Origin: Minisyncoccota bacterium | GTDB lineage: Bacteria; Patescibacteriota; Minisyncoccia; Phycocordibacterales; UBA9973 | Length of the DNA: 55,888 bases | Direction of reading: 5' to 3' | NCBI GenBank assembly: GCA_017991895.1 | Contig: JAGOPR010000003.1 | Span: 1-55,888, forward strand | Shown here: in pieces, positions 28,221 through 34,237 of the stretch | How the letters are laid out: every line of letters starts with the position of its first letter | Numbering within the stretch: position 1 is the first letter of the stretch | Program-made: the position numbers and the translations under genes | Notes under the pieces: generated by a model | The model's database searches: none | Told to the model about the DNA's origin: nothing | What the model saw: the letters and a program-made list of their open reading frames with translations, nothing else

Positions 28221-29063
28221 ATGAAAACCTACAAACCTACATCAAAATCCCGTCGTCACATGACTAATGTTATGTACCGTGGAGTGCTTACCCACACTGA
28301 ACCGCACAAAGCGCTTACGAGTGGTCTCAAGCGCGACATGGGTCGCAATAACCTCGGACGCATTACTGTGCGCCACAAGGGGGGAGGAAACAAGAAGCTC
28401 TATCGTGAGGTTGACTTCATGTTTGAAAAGAAAAATATTCCAGCAAAAGTAGTATCAGTTGAATACGATCCTTTCCGAACATCATTCATCTCACTAGTTG
28501 CATACAAGGATGGAGAGAAGCGATATATGCTTACTCCAAAATCAGTACGCCCAGGTGCTACATTTACAGTATCTACTGATGCTCCACTTGTTACTCCAAA
28601 CCGACTTCCACTTACAAAGATTCCAGTTGGTACTTTTGTTTACAATATTGAACTCAAGCCAGAAGGAGGCGCGAAGCTTGTCCGCTCAGCGGGTAACTTT
28701 GCACAGGTTGTGGCGAATGACGGAGGATATACACTTATAAAACTCCCATCATCTGAAGTTCGAAAAGTTTCTGAAAAATGCTGGGCAACAATTGGTGAAG
28801 TCTCAAACGACGAACATCACCTTGTAAACGTTGGAAAGGCAGGACGTTCTCGTCACAAAGGTATTCGCCCAACAGTTCGTGGTACTGCCATGAACCCTGT
28901 TGACCACCCATACGGTGGAGGTGAAGGCCGACAAGGACGTGGAACACGACGACCGAAGACAATGTGGGGTAAGGTTACCGGAGGTCGTAAGACTCGAGGT
29001 CCGAAGAAATATTCAAACCACCTTATAATTTCTCGCCGAGTAGTCAGTAAGAAAAACAAGTAA
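28221..29063 (+). CDS. rplB: 50S ribosomal protein L2
   Basis: RHKGGGNKKLYR, GNFAQVVA, and MNPVDHPYGGGEGR. Confidence 0.97.
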   Translation: MKTYKPTSKSRRHMTNVMYRGVLTHTEPHKALTSGLKRDMGRNNLGRITVRHKGGGNKKLYREVDFMFEKKNIPAKVVSVEYDPFRTSFISLVAYKDGEKRYMLTPKSVRPGATFTVSTDAPLVTPNRLPLTKIPVGTFVYNIELKPEGGAKLVRSAGNFAQVVANDGGYTLIKLPSSEVRKVSEKCWATIGEVSNDEHHLVNVGKAGRSRHKGIRPTVRGTAMNPVDHPYGGGEGRQGRGTRRPKTMWGKVTGGRKTRGPKKYSNHLIISRRVVSKKNK

Positions 29064-29093
29064 CACCTGAACACTTAAACAAGAAACACATAC

Positions 29094-29125
29094 AAAAAGC
29101 CCCGCGCTAATGCGCGGGGCTTTTT
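29094..29125 (+). terminator. Intrinsic terminator after rplB
   Basis: AAAAAGCCCCGCGC-TAAT-GCGCGGGGCTTTTT. The stem is identical to the terminator after rplE. Confidence 0.85.
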
Positions 29126-29132
29126 GTATGGC

Positions 29133-29160
29133 TTGACATACTTTTGTCGTTTGATATGGT
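29133..29160 (+). promoter_or_regulatory. Candidate promoter (TTGACA-N16-TATGGT)
   Basis: The -10 ends 6 nt before the ATG at 29167. Confidence 0.5.
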
Positions 29161-29166
29161 AGGAGT

Positions 29167-29241
29167 ATGTTCGCACAGAAAAACATTGTAGTCGCTCTAA
29201 TTATCATCCTTAAAAAAGGAGGGGCTACTTTTGTTGCATAA
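29167..29241 (+). CDS. Possible leaderless 24-aa hydrophobic peptide
   Basis: MFAQKNIVVALIIILKKGGATFVA, read by hand. It is bracketed by a promoter and the terminator at 29263-29299. Confidence 0.2.
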   Translation: MFAQKNIVVALIIILKKGGATFVA

Positions 29242-29262
29242 CCACGTATAAAAATAAACAGC

Positions 29263-29299
29263 AAAAAGAAAACCCTCCCCGCGGAGGGTTTTCTTTTTG
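29263..29299 (+). terminator. Intrinsic terminator
   Basis: AAAAAGAAAACCCTCC-CCGC-GGAGGGTTTTCTTTTT. Confidence 0.7.
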
Positions 29300-29509
29300 T
29301 AAAAAATTCTAAAAAACTCGTTTTCGAGCCAGTGCGTCTGGGGAGTCTAGAAACCCCAGACGCGGTGGTCCGAAAAAGAGACCACTGTAGCAAAAACGCT
29401 ATATCGACTAGGCACAGGTGCCAAATCGACGCGGAGCAATGGTAAGCTCGTCTCAAAAAATTCCAAGAGTTCATTAACAAATTCATAACACATCAAAAAA
29501 CTAGACGAG

Positions 29510-29845
29510 ATGTTTAAGAAATTATTTTACGAAAATAACAAATGGACAGCACTTGATTGTCCTCCAAAAGATAGTAAGCGGGATGGTTACGTAACTGTAT
29601 GGAAATTTAAGAATGACTGTATGAGTGCACCAAATCTTTGGCTAAGCCGCATGTGTCAGAAAATACGAGATAAGTACGGGCATGATATTGATAAACACGA
29701 GCTAATGGCTATGACTTTAGATCTTATGAAATTAGAATGTGTTTATGCCGACATCAATTTTTATTTTGAGGATGATGGATTTGTAATCGGCATAGGCGAA
29801 ATAGCAGAGGAAAAATTATTTCACGTGAGCGCAACTCACATCTAA
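29510..29845 (+). CDS. Hypothetical 111-aa protein
   Basis: ORF only. No family recognised. Confidence 0.5.
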   Translation: MFKKLFYENNKWTALDCPPKDSKRDGYVTVWKFKNDCMSAPNLWLSRMCQKIRDKYGHDIDKHELMAMTLDLMKLECVYADINFYFEDDGFVIGIGEIAEEKLFHVSATHI

Positions 29846-29861
29846 AATCAACGTTCAGATT

Positions 29862-30326
29862 ATGAGAAATGCCACTGATAAGGAGCTCGTTTTGAAGTAC
29901 CTAAGTATGAACGAGCAAGAGTTGCTTACGGAGTATATTTTGCGCCATGATGGGTCAACATTTGCTGTTTGTCGGACAGAAAATTGGGAATTCCGTACAC
30001 ACGATGAATTTTTAGATCTTAGACAAAAAATCACAAAGGATAACTTGGTCTGCCCATTTGAGGACCCGATAGATTATACAGGACTGTCGCTTTATGGTTT
30101 TAATGGATTGATACACCGAGCTAGTTATTCTTCTGACAATTTATTTTCGATCAATTTTCTTTTCGCGTACAGTAAACACCATAAGTTATTCCAGCAACTT
30201 GCGTTTGACTATGACAAATTACTCGTGGGCGATCTAACCCTAGTTTTTGTTGAGCCCAGAAGTATATATTGGAAAGAAACTAAAATAACTGGCGATGTGC
30301 ACTATACTAAAAGTTTTAAATATTAG
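29862..30326 (+). CDS. Hypothetical 154-aa protein
   Basis: ORF only, 16 nt after the previous gene. No family recognised. Confidence 0.5.
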   Translation: MRNATDKELVLKYLSMNEQELLTEYILRHDGSTFAVCRTENWEFRTHDEFLDLRQKITKDNLVCPFEDPIDYTGLSLYGFNGLIHRASYSSDNLFSINFLFAYSKHHKLFQQLAFDYDKLLVGDLTLVFVEPRSIYWKETKITGDVHYTKSFKY

Positions 30327-30336
30327 AATAAAGCTA

Positions 30337-30370
30337 AACAGTCTGAACAAAATGTTCAGCTGTTTTCTTT
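30337..30370 (+). terminator. Intrinsic terminator
   Basis: AACAGtCTGAACA-AAA-TGTTCAGCTGTT followed by TTCTTTTTATTT. Confidence 0.6.
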
Positions 30371-30398
30371 TTATTTCCTCGTGATACACTTTGCTTAT

Positions 30399-30788
30399 AT
30401 GAAACCCGAAGAAACAAAAAAATTTAGCTTGCACAAAAGAGTTAAGAGCACCAATCATGGCCTGCGGGGAATAGGCGTAATGTTTCGCCACGGTCACAAT
30501 GCGTGGCTGTTTATTTTCTTCGCCCTCGTTCCTTTGTATCTCGGTTTTAAGCTCTGTATTTCTACAACAGAGTGGCTAGTGCTCATACTTACTTTCATTG
30601 TTGTTATGGCACTTGAGGCAGTAAATACGGCCATGGAAATTCATATGGACCTCACGAGCCCTGACGAGCACCCGCATGCTCGCGATACGAAAGACGTTGC
30701 CGCTGGAGCAGTACTTATAGCAGTATTTTTTGGAGGTATTATCGGTATGATAATTTTTATACCTAAGGTTTTAAGTCTTTTCTCCTAA
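30399..30788 (+). CDS. dgkA: Diacylglycerol/undecaprenol kinase (prokaryotic DgkA family)
   Basis: LEAVNTAMEIHMDL...HPHARDTKDVAAGAVLIAVF and 3 TM helices. The ATG at 30399 is preferred over the GTG at 30381. Confidence 0.8.
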   Translation: MKPEETKKFSLHKRVKSTNHGLRGIGVMFRHGHNAWLFIFFALVPLYLGFKLCISTTEWLVLILTFIVVMALEAVNTAMEIHMDLTSPDEHPHARDTKDVAAGAVLIAVFFGGIIGMIIFIPKVLSLFS

Positions 30789-30812
30789 TAAGTAAGTTGG
30801 TTTATCCCCCAA

Positions 30813-30840
30813 TTGGCTAAAAATATTGGCATGCTATGAT
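30813..30840 (+). promoter_or_regulatory. Candidate promoter (TTGGCT-N16-TATGAT, extended TGC) 8 nt before the ATG
   Basis: Seen directly upstream of 30849. Confidence 0.45.
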
Positions 30841-30848
30841 AGCTGTCC

Positions 30849-31688
30849 ATGACCCCGCTAGCAATCATTACATTCCGCGAATTCTTTGAAGCGTGGCTTA
30901 TAGTTGGCCTATTTATAGGTATCGCAAAGAGTTTAAATCTCGGTCGCGGGCGGGATATGCTTAAAGCTGTTTTGCTAGGAATGGTTATCGCCATAATTAT
31001 TCCATCGGTTGTTTTCCTTGCGGGAGATAGCTTGCAGAGAATCTGGACTGAAGAAAAAGTGGAGTTGACCGAGGGAGTATTGATGATTGTGGCGTCTCTA
31101 ATGATAGGCATTGTTAGCCTATATTTGCATAAATTTTTCTCAGTAAAACGGCAAGCAGTAATCAAACAAGCAACTGAAAAATTGCAGACAAATGTATTCG
31201 ACAGAGCACTTTTTACTATTATTGTTATTTCAATTGTAAGAGAAGGACTTGAGATTGGACTTTTTGCACTATCTATTTCTCTTGTAACTCCAGTTAAGAC
31301 GCTTTTTTTAGGGCTTGGAGTAGGTTTCGCCGTAGCCTCGGTTGTTGGGATTTTTGCGATGCTGGCATACAAGCGACTACCGATTAAAAAAATATATGCA
31401 GTCACGGAGATAGGGATACTTTTTGTCGGGGCGGCACTTTTCAAAAATGGTATTTCAGAAATACTTGAAGTAATCTGGCACATTGATACATCAAAAATTT
31501 TACCGCTACCACTTTCATTTATGCCAAGTCATGAAAGCCTCCTCGGACATTTTTTGAATACAATTTTTGGTATCGAGAGAGAATTTAGTTTAGCAAAGTT
31601 ATTGCTTATTACTTTGTACTTTGGCGCTGTATATTATTTTGTTTTCCATAGAGCAAAACAAAAACAGATTGCTTCTGCTACTGCTTAG
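30849..31688 (+). CDS. FTR1/EfeU-family iron permease
   Basis: Two REXXE motifs in TM helices (FREFFEAW and IVREGLEIGLF). Multi-TM. Confidence 0.8.
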   Translation: MTPLAIITFREFFEAWLIVGLFIGIAKSLNLGRGRDMLKAVLLGMVIAIIIPSVVFLAGDSLQRIWTEEKVELTEGVLMIVASLMIGIVSLYLHKFFSVKRQAVIKQATEKLQTNVFDRALFTIIVISIVREGLEIGLFALSISLVTPVKTLFLGLGVGFAVASVVGIFAMLAYKRLPIKKIYAVTEIGILFVGAALFKNGISEILEVIWHIDTSKILPLPLSFMPSHESLLGHFLNTIFGIEREFSLAKLLLITLYFGAVYYFVFHRAKQKQIASATA

Positions 31689-34113
31689 CCTTTTTCACAT
31701 ATTTTTTGAACTCGTTTCCTTTTTCTTCAAAATTTTTCCACACAGAGTAACTAGGTGAGGCAGTTGAGAGGAGGCAGATGCTTCCTCTTGGAGTGTTTTT
31801 GTAGGCGAATGCGACAGCCTGTTTCATACTTCTTGTTTCTAGAATATTGAGACCTTTTTTATTTTTCAGCATACGACTTCCACTCGTAGGGAAAAGCACG
31901 ATATTTTTTATTTTATATTTTCGGACAGTTTTTTCTAGATCAGTAAAATCATATCCACGGTCTTCTCCACCGAGAAAGAGCGTGCCGATATTTTTTAATG
32001 TCTTTATAGCAGCGATTGCAGACTGCGGAGTCGTTGAAATCGCATCATCATAAAAAGTGATGCCATTATGTGTTCCAATCAGTTCAAGTCGGTGTGGAAG
32101 AGGTCTAAAATTTTTGATTGCCTTCGCGATTGCACTATCTTTTATTCCGAGTGCGCGGGCGACGGCAACTGACGCACGAATATTCATCTTGTTGTGTTCG
32201 CCTAAGAGCGGAATTTCTTTAGTTGGAATCTTTGCAGTAAACGGCGGAAGGATTTTTATGTCACCAGCTTTTTGATATTTAAAAATATTCATCTTTGCCT
32301 CGTAGTAAGCAGGGAGACTGGTGTGGTAGTTCATATGCTCCGGAAAGAGGTTGATAAGTAAGGATATATTTGGAGAATACTCGATGTCGTCGAGCATGTA
32401 ACTCGAGAGTTCAATTACGAATACCTCTTTTTTATCAATTTTTCTGAGTAGGGCTTCAAGCATTGGATTACCAATGTTACCGAGGAGGCGAACTTTTTTT
32501 CCACCAGCTTTTAGCATTTCATACACGAGTGTCGTTGTTGTACTTTTGCCTTTGGTCCCAGTGATTCCTACGGTAAGGTTTTTGTTTTGAGAGAAAAAGA
32601 CATTTGTCGCCGTCGTATATGCTCCAGTAACTTTTTCTTTGGGAATTCCGGGGGTTTTAATTATTAGGTCAAAATTCTTTTGCTTTGCGAGATAGTTCTT
32701 ATCGCGGTCTTCATCAAGGATGCCAATTTTGAGTTTTGGGTAGAACTTTTTCAGATATTTTTCGGTAACCTTACCTTCTCTTCGGTAGCCGAGTATTCCT
32801 ACGGTTTCAATTCCGAGGAACTTAAATGGTGTTGGCAGAGTAGGGGCATGAGTAGTTTGCATAACTGTTTCTATTAGAGTTTCAGGATTTTTTATTTTTT
32901 TGAGATATTTCTTTGTAACAATATCGCTCTTGTACGAATTTGCGGAAAGATAAAGTGAGGCACGGGATTCTTCAAATGTTCCTACGCATTCAAACGGTTT
33001 CATCGAGCCGAAGCCGAGAATGTCGCCAAAGAGCGGAATAAGACTTTCATCCGCCAGCAGATTTTTACCGAATATTTTAACGAGTTCAGTTTTTGGAATA
33101 AATGGAGAGAGTATTAAAAAGACGAACGCACATTTTGGACATTCTCCACACCAAAGAGTGTCGGGTCGATCTTTGAAAACTTTGAAATTTCGATTACAAC
33201 TCGAGAATGTCTCAAAGTATTTTGGATATCTTGAAAAAAGTTTGGCAACACGGATTTCGTAGAATTGACGAAGAAGTGAAAAGTATTGTATGTCAGTTGT
33301 AATATTTCCACGTGTGTATTCTTGGAGCATCGCTTCAAACTCAGCTGACTTGCTCCACTGGTGGTTTATAGTTTCTCCTTTATATTCAGCATTTCCAAAG
33401 TTACTTGAGTGCTCGTTGCCAACAACCACATACTTATATCCGTAGAGAGCCGATGAAAGGAGACCTGTAAAAGCGAAGATAGCAGAAATTGGAATGTGTC
33501 CATTGTACGCGCCAGCGTGTTCCTCGAATATCTGTGGGTCGAGAATACGCCTTATTTTAAGGCTTGGATTTCCAATGATATCTATAACTTGCTCTGCTAT
33601 CGGGTCTCCCTTCTGTGTCTCCAAGAGGTAAGACGCTACATCGAAGTCCCTGAGGAGCTCTGTTGCGACGATAGAATCTTTTCCTCCGCCGATGCCGAGA
33701 AGTATTTTTTCAGATGTGCTGACAGATACGGGTGAAGCTTTAACTTTTTTTGAAAAGGGAAACCTCGCAACTTTTTTAGGATCGAGATTATTTCGGTACA
33801 AAAATTCGCCAAGTCCTTTTCTATATACGGTATTCCAAAACTCCGCTTGTTTTTCTGAGAGGGGGAATGCAGTAGCAATTTTCGGAGGGCAATAAAGTTT
33901 GTAATAACTGATACCGAGAATGAGCGAAAGCGGATCGAGGAATTTTTCTAAGACTTCTGGCGAGATCTTACGCGGAGTTTTTGGCAATAAAATTGTTTCA
34001 CTAAAGGAGAGTGGCGCGCGATCAGAAAATTCGATTGAGTAATCGAAGGTGATTTTAAGGCAATCCGGTTCGTAGGTGTAGCCTTTGAAATTGAAGGCGG
34101 TGGCTTTGGACAT
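31678..34113 (-). CDS. murD: Fusion protein: N-terminal ~440-aa PP-loop-type domain (possible MurL-like epimerase) plus C-terminal UDP-N-acetylmuramoylalanine-glutamate ligase (MurD family)
   Basis: The C-terminal half has GITGTKGKSTTTTL, LSSYML, GEHNKMN and HRLE (Mur ligase motifs). The N-terminal half has LLGIGGGKDS (SGGxDS-like) and WCGECPKC. Confidence 0.8.
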   Translation of the reverse strand: MSKATAFNFKGYTYEPDCLKITFDYSIEFSDRAPLSFSETILLPKTPRKISPEVLEKFLDPLSLILGISYYKLYCPPKIATAFPLSEKQAEFWNTVYRKGLGEFLYRNNLDPKKVARFPFSKKVKASPVSVSTSEKILLGIGGGKDSIVATELLRDFDVASYLLETQKGDPIAEQVIDIIGNPSLKIRRILDPQIFEEHAGAYNGHIPISAIFAFTGLLSSALYGYKYVVVGNEHSSNFGNAEYKGETINHQWSKSAEFEAMLQEYTRGNITTDIQYFSLLRQFYEIRVAKLFSRYPKYFETFSSCNRNFKVFKDRPDTLWCGECPKCAFVFLILSPFIPKTELVKIFGKNLLADESLIPLFGDILGFGSMKPFECVGTFEESRASLYLSANSYKSDIVTKKYLKKIKNPETLIETVMQTTHAPTLPTPFKFLGIETVGILGYRREGKVTEKYLKKFYPKLKIGILDEDRDKNYLAKQKNFDLIIKTPGIPKEKVTGAYTTATNVFFSQNKNLTVGITGTKGKSTTTTLVYEMLKAGGKKVRLLGNIGNPMLEALLRKIDKKEVFVIELSSYMLDDIEYSPNISLLINLFPEHMNYHTSLPAYYEAKMNIFKYQKAGDIKILPPFTAKIPTKEIPLLGEHNKMNIRASVAVARALGIKDSAIAKAIKNFRPLPHRLELIGTHNGITFYDDAISTTPQSAIAAIKTLKNIGTLFLGGEDRGYDFTDLEKTVRKYKIKNIVLFPTSGSRMLKNKKGLNILETRSMKQAVAFAYKNTPRGSICLLSTASPSYSVWKNFEEKGNEFKKYVKKAKQ

Positions 34114-34209
34114 TACCTCTATACCTTACCCAAAAACCCCAAAATAGCCAAGAAAATAAGAATCTGGACTCCGGATCGAGTTCGGGACGACCTGCTCATG
34201 CGGGTCGAT

Positions 34210-34237
34210 TTGACTTATAAAAACAATCTGCTAGTAT
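34210..34237 (+). promoter_or_regulatory. Restart promoter for rpsS-...-rplE
   Basis: GGGTCGATTTGACT-N16-TAGTAT. About 45 nt is homologous to the promoter at 40243-40290. Confidence 0.6.

Follow-up and report, generated by a model that had tools for sequence, protein, structure and literature searches.

The 55,888-nucleotide window analysed here (positions 1 to 55,888 of contig JAGOPR010000003.1, forward strand, from the Minisyncoccota bacterium assembly GCA_017991895.1) carries on its reverse strand, at positions 31678–34113, a stop-free open reading frame (ORF) of 811 amino acids with an intact frame, which ends with a stop codon at 31678–31680 and whose ATG is immediately preceded by a Shine-Dalgarno-like AGAGG. 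It is likely, with a probability that we put at about 0.8, that this ORF encodes a bifunctional MurL–MurD2 enzyme performing both steps that lead to D-glutamate (D-Glu) at position 2 of the peptidoglycan stem peptide. The C-terminal ligase module (residues 437–811) would join L-glutamate (L-Glu) to UDP-N-acetylmuramoyl-L-alanine (UDP-MurNAc-L-Ala) in an ATP-driven reaction with an acyl-phosphate intermediate, which is the chemistry of MurD2. The N-terminal MurL module (residues 1–436) would then adenylate the alpha-carboxylate of the new terminal L-Glu with the release of AMP, and the residue would be converted to D-Glu. The fusion has no linker and presumably passes the L-Glu intermediate from site to site, so that channelling between the MurL and MurD2 sites might be expected.

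The two modules of the 811-residue protein

The source genome (G000) is a metagenome-assembled draft of 34 contigs, 0.75 Mb in size and 93% complete with an estimated contamination of 0.92%, in which the window contig was designated C31. An earlier interpretation of the window, made from its letters alone and referred to below as the sequence-only reading, described a MurD-type Mur ligase in the C-terminal ~370 residues fused to a separate N-terminal domain with a PP-loop, and proposed the fusion as a candidate MurL–MurD2 pair. The five motifs that it quoted were all located in the protein: LLGIGGGKDS at residues 138–147, WCGECPKC at 321–328, GITGTKGKSTTTTL at 516–529, GEHNKMN at 638–644 and HRLE at 674–677. 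The division into two parts also proved right, the N-terminal domain being a module of ~435 residues. Across 61 fused sequences the junction could be aligned and a linker was absent; the end of MurL, with its conserved P427..F430, leads directly into the Rossmann GxGxxG of MurD. The model of the full-length fusion was confident as one body, with a predicted local distance difference test (pLDDT) of 91.5 and a predicted template modelling score (pTM) of 0.87.

The MurL module is encoded at 32806–34113 (reverse strand). The homology to MurL, which the sequence-only reading was unable to verify by eye, was established by a profile search in which NF041275 (UDP-N-acetyl-alpha-D-muramoyl-L-alanyl-L-glutamate epimerase) matched residues 4–409 with an E-value of 9.8e-108 and 360.5 bits, covering model positions 7–414 of 447. 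The similarity to the MurL family thus extended over nearly the full length and no competing family appeared in this search, which suggests that this half of the protein would have epimerase activity. Precomputed Pfam assignments on the fusion protein and its relatives gave PF26299 (MurL_N), PF26298 (MurL_epimerase_C) and Mur_ligase_M, so that MurL-family domains have already been tagged by annotation resources. A scan against Pfam-A returned only Mur_ligase_M/C and no match in the first 440 residues, because the scanned copy lacked the newer MurL families, PF26298 among them.

An AlphaFold2 model of the MurL module, built from 61 homologues, reached a pLDDT of 94.8 and a pTM of 0.93. It consists of an N-terminal beta/alpha part, a PP-loop alpha/beta core (residues ~134–300), a cysteine cluster and a C-terminal helical part. 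The top Foldseek matches in the PDB were PP-loop ATP pyrophosphatases exclusively (carbapenam synthetase, QueC-like Cap9 and YcfA, MnmA, TtuA, argininosuccinate synthase, NAD synthetase and ThiI), all of them remote (E 2e-4 to 1e-2, 11–21% identity); no close fold match was found in the PDB by this search. A PDB sequence search with the MurL half returned only noise and no MurL among solved structures. The model therefore bore out the PP-loop guess of the sequence-only reading.

The nucleotide-binding motif of this core is the PP-loop-like G140-I-G-G-G-K-D-S147 (33673–33696, reverse strand), a variant of SGGxDS. Among the 61 MurL homologues no variation was seen at G142, G143, G144, K145 and S147, and hardly any at G140 and D146. 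In the model, GGGKDS lies between the strand 134–140 and the helix 145–153, i.e. the alpha/beta core carries an SGGxDS-type loop after its first strand as in the PP-loop superfamily, with Gly where the canonical motif begins with Ser. Invariant columns also marked the cysteine cluster C306 ... C322-x2-C325-x2-C328 (33130–33198, reverse strand), which, judging from the fold relatives and from QueC, may be a QueC/TtuA-like metal (Zn) site. The remaining invariant residues were H206, E234, N250-H-Q-W-S-K255, S279, R282 and K372-P-F-x-C376. MurL has been described as lacking known conserved domains, with an unclear mechanism, and as acting unidirectionally from L to D; one ATP is consumed and AMP formed, and an alpha-carboxyl adenylate has been proposed (PMC8788868). 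This ATP-to-AMP stoichiometry fits, because PP-loop enzymes adenylate their substrates. The assignment of the MurL module to the PP-loop ATP pyrophosphatase fold is thus supported by the predicted structure.

The ligase module is encoded at 31681–32805 (reverse strand). It matched TIGR01087 (murD) with 258.7 bits, above the cut-off of 212, covering model positions 54–213 and 261–440, and its best match among solved structures was the MurD 3lk7 (E 4e-48), which substantiates the Mur ligase assignment of the sequence-only reading. It was also the only MurD found in the source genome, where the other Mur ligases were MurC, MurE and a MurF-like protein. The module is compact, with a short N-domain and a central domain ~45 residues shorter than in E. 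coli MurD. The ATP P-loop G516-ITGTKGKS-T525 lies at 32539–32568 (reverse strand), and the equivalents of K115, N138, H183 and K198 of E. coli MurD are kept, indicating an intact ATP and Mg site.

The glutamate specificity of the ligase was evaluated in an alignment of 80 Patescibacteria MurDs from genomes with MurL or MurI, with E. coli MurD as a reference whose numbering omits Met1. According to a review of the work of Feng et al. (PMC8788868), MurD2 has E197, R358, P433 and F435 where E. coli MurD has D182, K348, A414 and L416, the E197D/R358K double mutant of MurD2 becomes a D-Glu ligase, and the K319T substitution makes E. coli MurD accept L-Glu. The ligase half has E592 (32338–32340, reverse strand) at the D182 position, R719 (31957–31959, reverse strand) at the K348 position and P787-S-Y789 (31747–31755, reverse strand) in place of A414-S415-L416, i.e. 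the Glu, Arg and Pro/aromatic residues of MurD2. Moreover, isoleucine (I692) occupies the K319 position. Arg was present at position 348 in all 11 fused MurDs and in 32 of the 37 unfused ones from MurL genomes, whereas 29/31 MurDs from MurI genomes had Lys, and Pro at position 414 was confined to the MurL-linked set.

A maximum-likelihood tree of 81 MurDs, obtained by a quick search and with support from the Shimodaira–Hasegawa-like approximate likelihood ratio test (SH-aLRT) only, contained a clade with an SH-aLRT of 97 to which all 11 fused MurDs and 37 of the 38 unfused ones from MurL genomes belonged. This clade, comprising 48/49 MurL-linked MurDs, contained none of the 31 MurI-linked proteins. 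Within it, the ligase half and the fused protein of the same-order genome G211 were sisters (support 99). The specificity residues together with the phylogeny support a MurD2-type ligase, as had been guessed, which would probably be specific for L-Glu.

Distribution of MurL and its relation to glutamate racemase

The occurrence of both genes was surveyed in 401 evenly drawn Patescibacteria species genomes. MurL was encoded in 55 of them (~14%), with murL and murD adjacent, in either order, in nearly all, and in about one fifth of the MurL genomes (11/55) both were fused in one open frame of at least 800 aa. Among named species genomes at least 592 encode a relative, so the MurD2/MurL pathway is far wider than known. 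Among 1.8 billion cluster representatives, 1,231 clusters matched at E ≤ 1e-30, and about 25 of the 150 best were fused. In another database search, the best 120 full-length matches bore the names Parcubacteria, Uhrbacteria, Moranbacteria or Paceibacterota. The fusion is therefore common across Patescibacteria and not peculiar to the source genome. On the MurD tree the fused state requires at least two changes. A protein of 878 aa from the representative library (P0355) has the reverse order, with MurD at residues 25–445 and MurL at 454–845; MurL and MurD have thus been joined independently in both orientations.

A literature search, in which subscription journals were sparsely covered, returned no MurL–MurD fusion and no MurL in Patescibacteria, also called the candidate phyla radiation (CPR). 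Relative to the literature searched, the single-chain form, its repeated origin, the spread in Patescibacteria and the PP-loop assignment are new, while the chemistry itself is known.

The glutamate racemase MurI was detected above its cut-off in 126 of the 401 genomes. It co-occurred with MurL in only 1 of the 55 MurL genomes, in comparison with 125 of the 346 others (Fisher p = 8.4e-9). Such near exclusion is expected if MurL and MurD2 replace MurI and MurD. The only genome with both MurL and MurI was the source genome, MurI being absent in the other 54.

In 221/401 genomes neither MurL nor an above-cut-off MurI was present, and ~49 of these had only a sub-threshold MurI-like match. The genomes G284, G143 and G324, for instance, have no MurL and no above-cut-off MurI, yet encode a murD above the cut-off.

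Because the source genome is a draft of 34 contigs assembled from a metagenome, and murL and murD are separate neighbours in most relatives, the fusion might be a frameshift or assembly artefact, or the contig might be mis-binned so that MurI and the fusion come from different cells. Both variants were judged exceedingly improbable. More than 100 independent full-length homologues have an equal architecture, including two that are 69% and 81% identical and lie in an rplB–DAGK context, and the 61 fused sequences align across the junction. The sequence-only reading had named an assembly or frameshift join of two genes as a result that would undo it; this was rejected, the same fusion being found in 11/401 genomes and the best 120 database matches, from independent assemblies, all being 780–860 aa long with the two modules alike. 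Mis-binning was rejected as well. The ribosomal protein L2 encoded on the window contig shares 88% identity with L2 of G433, a genome of the same genus, and ~70% with those of other genera, which on protein identity places the contig in the genus of G433. The source MurI, on contig C8, is likewise 64% identical to the MurI of G433, and the estimated contamination is low, at the 0.92% given above.

Several observations weigh against a MurL–MurD2 route to D-Glu in this organism. The MurL match of 360.5 bits is below the 700-bit equivalog cut-off of NF041275, so the model does not certify orthology. This cut-off, which is tuned to Xanthomonadales, was reached by none of the 401 genomes. A host without glutamate racemase, as in the background to the sequence-only reading, was not what the genome check found: the source genome encodes a MurI of 280 aa that scores 180 bits against a curated cut-off of 146.65 and contains both catalytic Cys motifs (ACNTAS and GCTHY), and thus has another source of D-Glu. 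With free D-Glu probably on hand, the organism would not strictly depend on the epimerase. A D-amino-acid aminotransferase (Aminotran_4) was not found in the source genome. Arg at position 348 is not diagnostic alone, as MurD of S. mutans has Arg there and prefers D-Glu with a slight acceptance of L-Glu (PMC8788868). The R/P signature is essentially clade-wide and represents largely one event, so the residue counts in MurDs are not independent. Residues were mapped by way of the E. coli numbering and the published description, with an alignment and a tree that contain no characterised MurD2; the best 80 hits of the named-genome scan were all of Patescibacteria type, and the tree is without Xanthomonas, Micromonospora and Devosia sequences. 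Finally, 93% completeness leaves room for a canonical murD in unassembled DNA.

The intact MurI is the starting point of an alternative in which the ligase takes MurI-made D-Glu, either exclusively or along with L-Glu, and MurL serves as a one-way proofreader of L-Glu mis-incorporation. The reported unidirectionality of MurL, from L to D, suits this role, as does the D-Glu use with slight L-Glu acceptance of the Arg-containing S. mutans MurD. A parallel is G433, which has, besides an orphan MurL-like gene, both MurI and a canonical MurD of the K348 type; D-Glu can hardly come mainly from MurL there, and stereochemical proofreading is one possible role for the orphan. For the source genome this alternative was nevertheless considered rather unlikely. 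The ligase half has both the Glu and the Arg whose joint replacement converts MurD2 to D-Glu use, it is nested well inside the clade of MurL-linked MurDs, where the remaining members belong to MurI-free genomes, and the co-occurrence of MurL and MurI is almost nil in the phylum, which argues for a MurL that normally replaces MurI and does not assist it.

A different activity of the PP-loop module was weighed too, namely another carboxylate chemistry such as the amidation of Glu to iso-glutamine, which would make the fusion a MurD joined to a stem-peptide modifier. The fold relatives include carboxylate-adenylating amidotransferases and ligases, the MurL score is below the equivalog cut-off and MurI is present in the source genome. 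Such a function seems very unlikely, since the MurL model is matched over nearly its whole length (E 1e-107) and no other family competes, and since the exclusion with MurI is predicted by a D-Glu supplier and not by an amidase. In addition, no glutaminase partner or ammonia-donor domain was seen in the ORF or the adjoining genes. The sequence-only reading was to be abandoned if a canonical MurI were found together with an N-terminal domain unlike MurL and a ligase of standard MurD specificity. The last two parts of this combination did not hold, hence the MurL–MurD2 reading stands.

The cargo block between rplB and rpsS and the history of the locus

The fusion gene belongs to a 5.17-kb cargo block (29064–34235, no strand assigned), which splits rplB (28221–29063) from rpsS (from 34236); the location of the fusion, antisense within an insertion in the S10 operon, was thus correctly perceived in the sequence-only reading. 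Besides the fusion, the block contains two ORFs with no family match, of 111 aa (29510–29845) and 154 aa (29862–30326), a DAGK_prokar-family kinase of the diacylglycerol/undecaprenol kinase type (30381–30788, forward strand) and an FTR1/EfeU-like permease (30849–31688, forward strand). The permease gene is convergent with the fusion, their 3′ ends overlapping by 11 nt, and no EfeO/EfeB-type iron-uptake partner genes were seen near it.

In the related genomes G256, G284 and G211, rplB and rpsS are contiguous and the block is absent. The fusion of G415, a MurI-less genome belonging to a different genus of the family, is 69% identical to the one studied here and lies in the layout L2–DAGK–fusion(−)–S19, and the homologue with 81% identity (P0004) is preceded by L2 and DAGK on its contig. 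At the same junction, G433 carries another cargo (L193, G433:C2, 5252–10140) that encodes a PyrF/PyrE-like protein of 499 aa, a LamG-like protein of 407 aa, membrane proteins and DAGK, and G324 has a 2.4-kb insert with content without assignment (L108, G324:C2, 5870–8298). As its contents differ between genomes, the rplB|rpsS junction behaves as a recurrent cargo site in the order. The DAGK kinase accompanies the fusion in the source genome, in G415 and on the P0004 contig, and it also occurs at the G433 junction, where the fusion is lacking. The kinase might act together with the cell-wall cargo as a partner related to the lipid carrier.

The canonical murD locus of the lineage was traced through two relatives. 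In G256, a genome of the same family, a canonical murE-murD-murC cluster is flanked by two genes which in the source genome are directly adjacent on contig C10; since these flanks are contiguous, the locus is empty and not lost in a gap. The neighbourhood of MurI in G433 is also contiguous and murD-free in the source genome, and with both contexts accounted for in this way a canonical murD hidden in a gap was considered improbable at a completeness of 93%.

The murE-murD-murC cluster is dispersed in the source genome. The source MurE (C26:24121–25422) is 32% identical to the MurE of G256 (L107), the corresponding values being 49% for MurC and 60–72% for ribosomal proteins. Replacement in the source lineage may not have been limited to a single Mur gene.

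In the 61 genomes of the same family, MurL was found in 5 and MurI in 15, and both occurred together only in the source genus, that is in the source genome and G433. The G433 gene for MurI, the 64% identical counterpart mentioned above, is located 3 kb from a canonical MurD of the D/K/A/F type. Its orphan MurL-like gene (L190, G433:C11, 6355–7665) encodes 436 aa with 34% identity to the MurL half and has no adjacent murD. The most likely history is that the ancestor of the genus had MurI and MurD, and that the lineage of the source genome gained the fusion cargo at rplB|rpsS and then lost the canonical murD. MurI of the source genome would accordingly be a leftover or be retained for another purpose.

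A bolder interpretation, which we regard as rather improbable, is that in this genus (the source genome and G433) MurL-type epimerases persist stably beside an intact MurI, contrary to the exclusion that prevails in the phylum, so that either MurL or MurI would have a second job, and that MurD2/MurL is a major pathway of Patescibacteria, exchanged horizontally and in this case carried as cargo in the S10 operon; it would then be more than an oddity of a few genera of proteobacteria and actinobacteria. The second job could be proofreading or repair of stem peptides by MurL, a reversed MurI reaction salvaging D-Glu from the host wall into L-Glu, or the supply of D-Glu by MurI to an adjacent ATP-grasp ligase for a side-chain or branch. 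The MurI gene adjoins a gene for a penicillin-binding protein (PBP)/FtsI-like protein a few kb from mraZ-rsmH, on a contig (C8) of 43 kb with normal composition.

The MurI gene (C8:16374–17216) is also convergent with, and abuts, the gene of a 413-aa ATP-grasp protein with weak ATP-grasp_4 and CPSase-like matches, the two genes together spanning C8:15132–17216. There are known pairs of a racemase and an ATP-grasp ligase that add D-amino acids to peptidoglycan side chains, and this neighbour could be a reason for the retention of MurI.

Significance and comparison with known systems

Fusions that occur repeatedly and in either order are natural Rosetta-stone evidence for a ligase and an epimerase that work on each other's product, and the exclusion between MurL and MurI provides independent genomic support for MurL function beyond the organisms tested so far. 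For the mechanism of MurL, the PP-loop fold, the GGGKDS motif, the Cys cluster and the invariant His, Glu and Lys side chains offer concrete targets of mutagenesis, with C376, H206 and E234 as candidate acid/base residues. A compact, single-chain bifunctional enzyme would be suitable for crystallography or cryo-electron microscopy and for studies of substrate hand-over. In terms of CPR biology, the system points to a racemase-free formation of D-Glu in ultra-small genomes and to a case in which cargo of a ribosomal operon took the place of a core cell-wall gene.

The closest known system is that of Xanthomonas oryzae, whose MurL (XOO_1319) and MurD2 (XOO_1320) belong to the same two functionally linked families (Feng et al. 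2017/2019; reviewed in PMC8788868 and PMC5808125) and are encoded by neighbouring genes, as the Patescibacteria genes are either neighbouring or fused. The E, R, P and aromatic residues of MurD2 are common to both, the conversion of ATP to AMP by MurL fits the PP-loop fold, and MurI is absent there as it is in nearly all Patescibacteria carriers. In contrast to X. oryzae, the source protein is one linker-less chain of 811 aa, its ligase has 375 residues instead of ~440–460, and its MurL score is below the cut-off. The published distribution of MurL/MurD2 covers some Gamma- and Alphaproteobacteria and rare actinobacteria, whereas the host described here belongs to the Patescibacteria and keeps its MurI.

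The canonical MurI and MurD pair of the E. coli type has in common with the fusion the Mur ligase fold, the P-loop and the equivalents of H183 and K198. The fusion differs from it by having E, R, P and Y at the positions of D182, K348, A414 and L416 and I at that of K319, by the placement of its ligase half in a clade apart from the MurDs of MurI genomes, and in that D-Glu would be formed on the precursor and not as a free amino acid.

The PP-loop enzymes (QueC, TtuA, MnmA, ThiI, asparagine synthetase/beta-lactam synthetase, argininosuccinate synthase and NAD synthetase) resemble the MurL module in the core, the GGGKDS loop and the logic of adenylation, and the C...CxxCxxC cluster of the module resembles the metal site of QueC and TtuA. 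Unlike these enzymes, the module has large MurL-specific N- and C-terminal parts, and it would perform epimerisation and hydrolysis instead of amidation or thiolation.

Other fusions of precursor enzymes, such as MurB-MurC of Verrucomicrobium (PMC4803751), MurC-Ddl and MurE-MurF (NCBIfam NF011171, NF008896), likewise join consecutive Mur steps; unlike MurL–MurD2, none of them links a ligase to an epimerase that would correct the stereochemistry of the residue just added.

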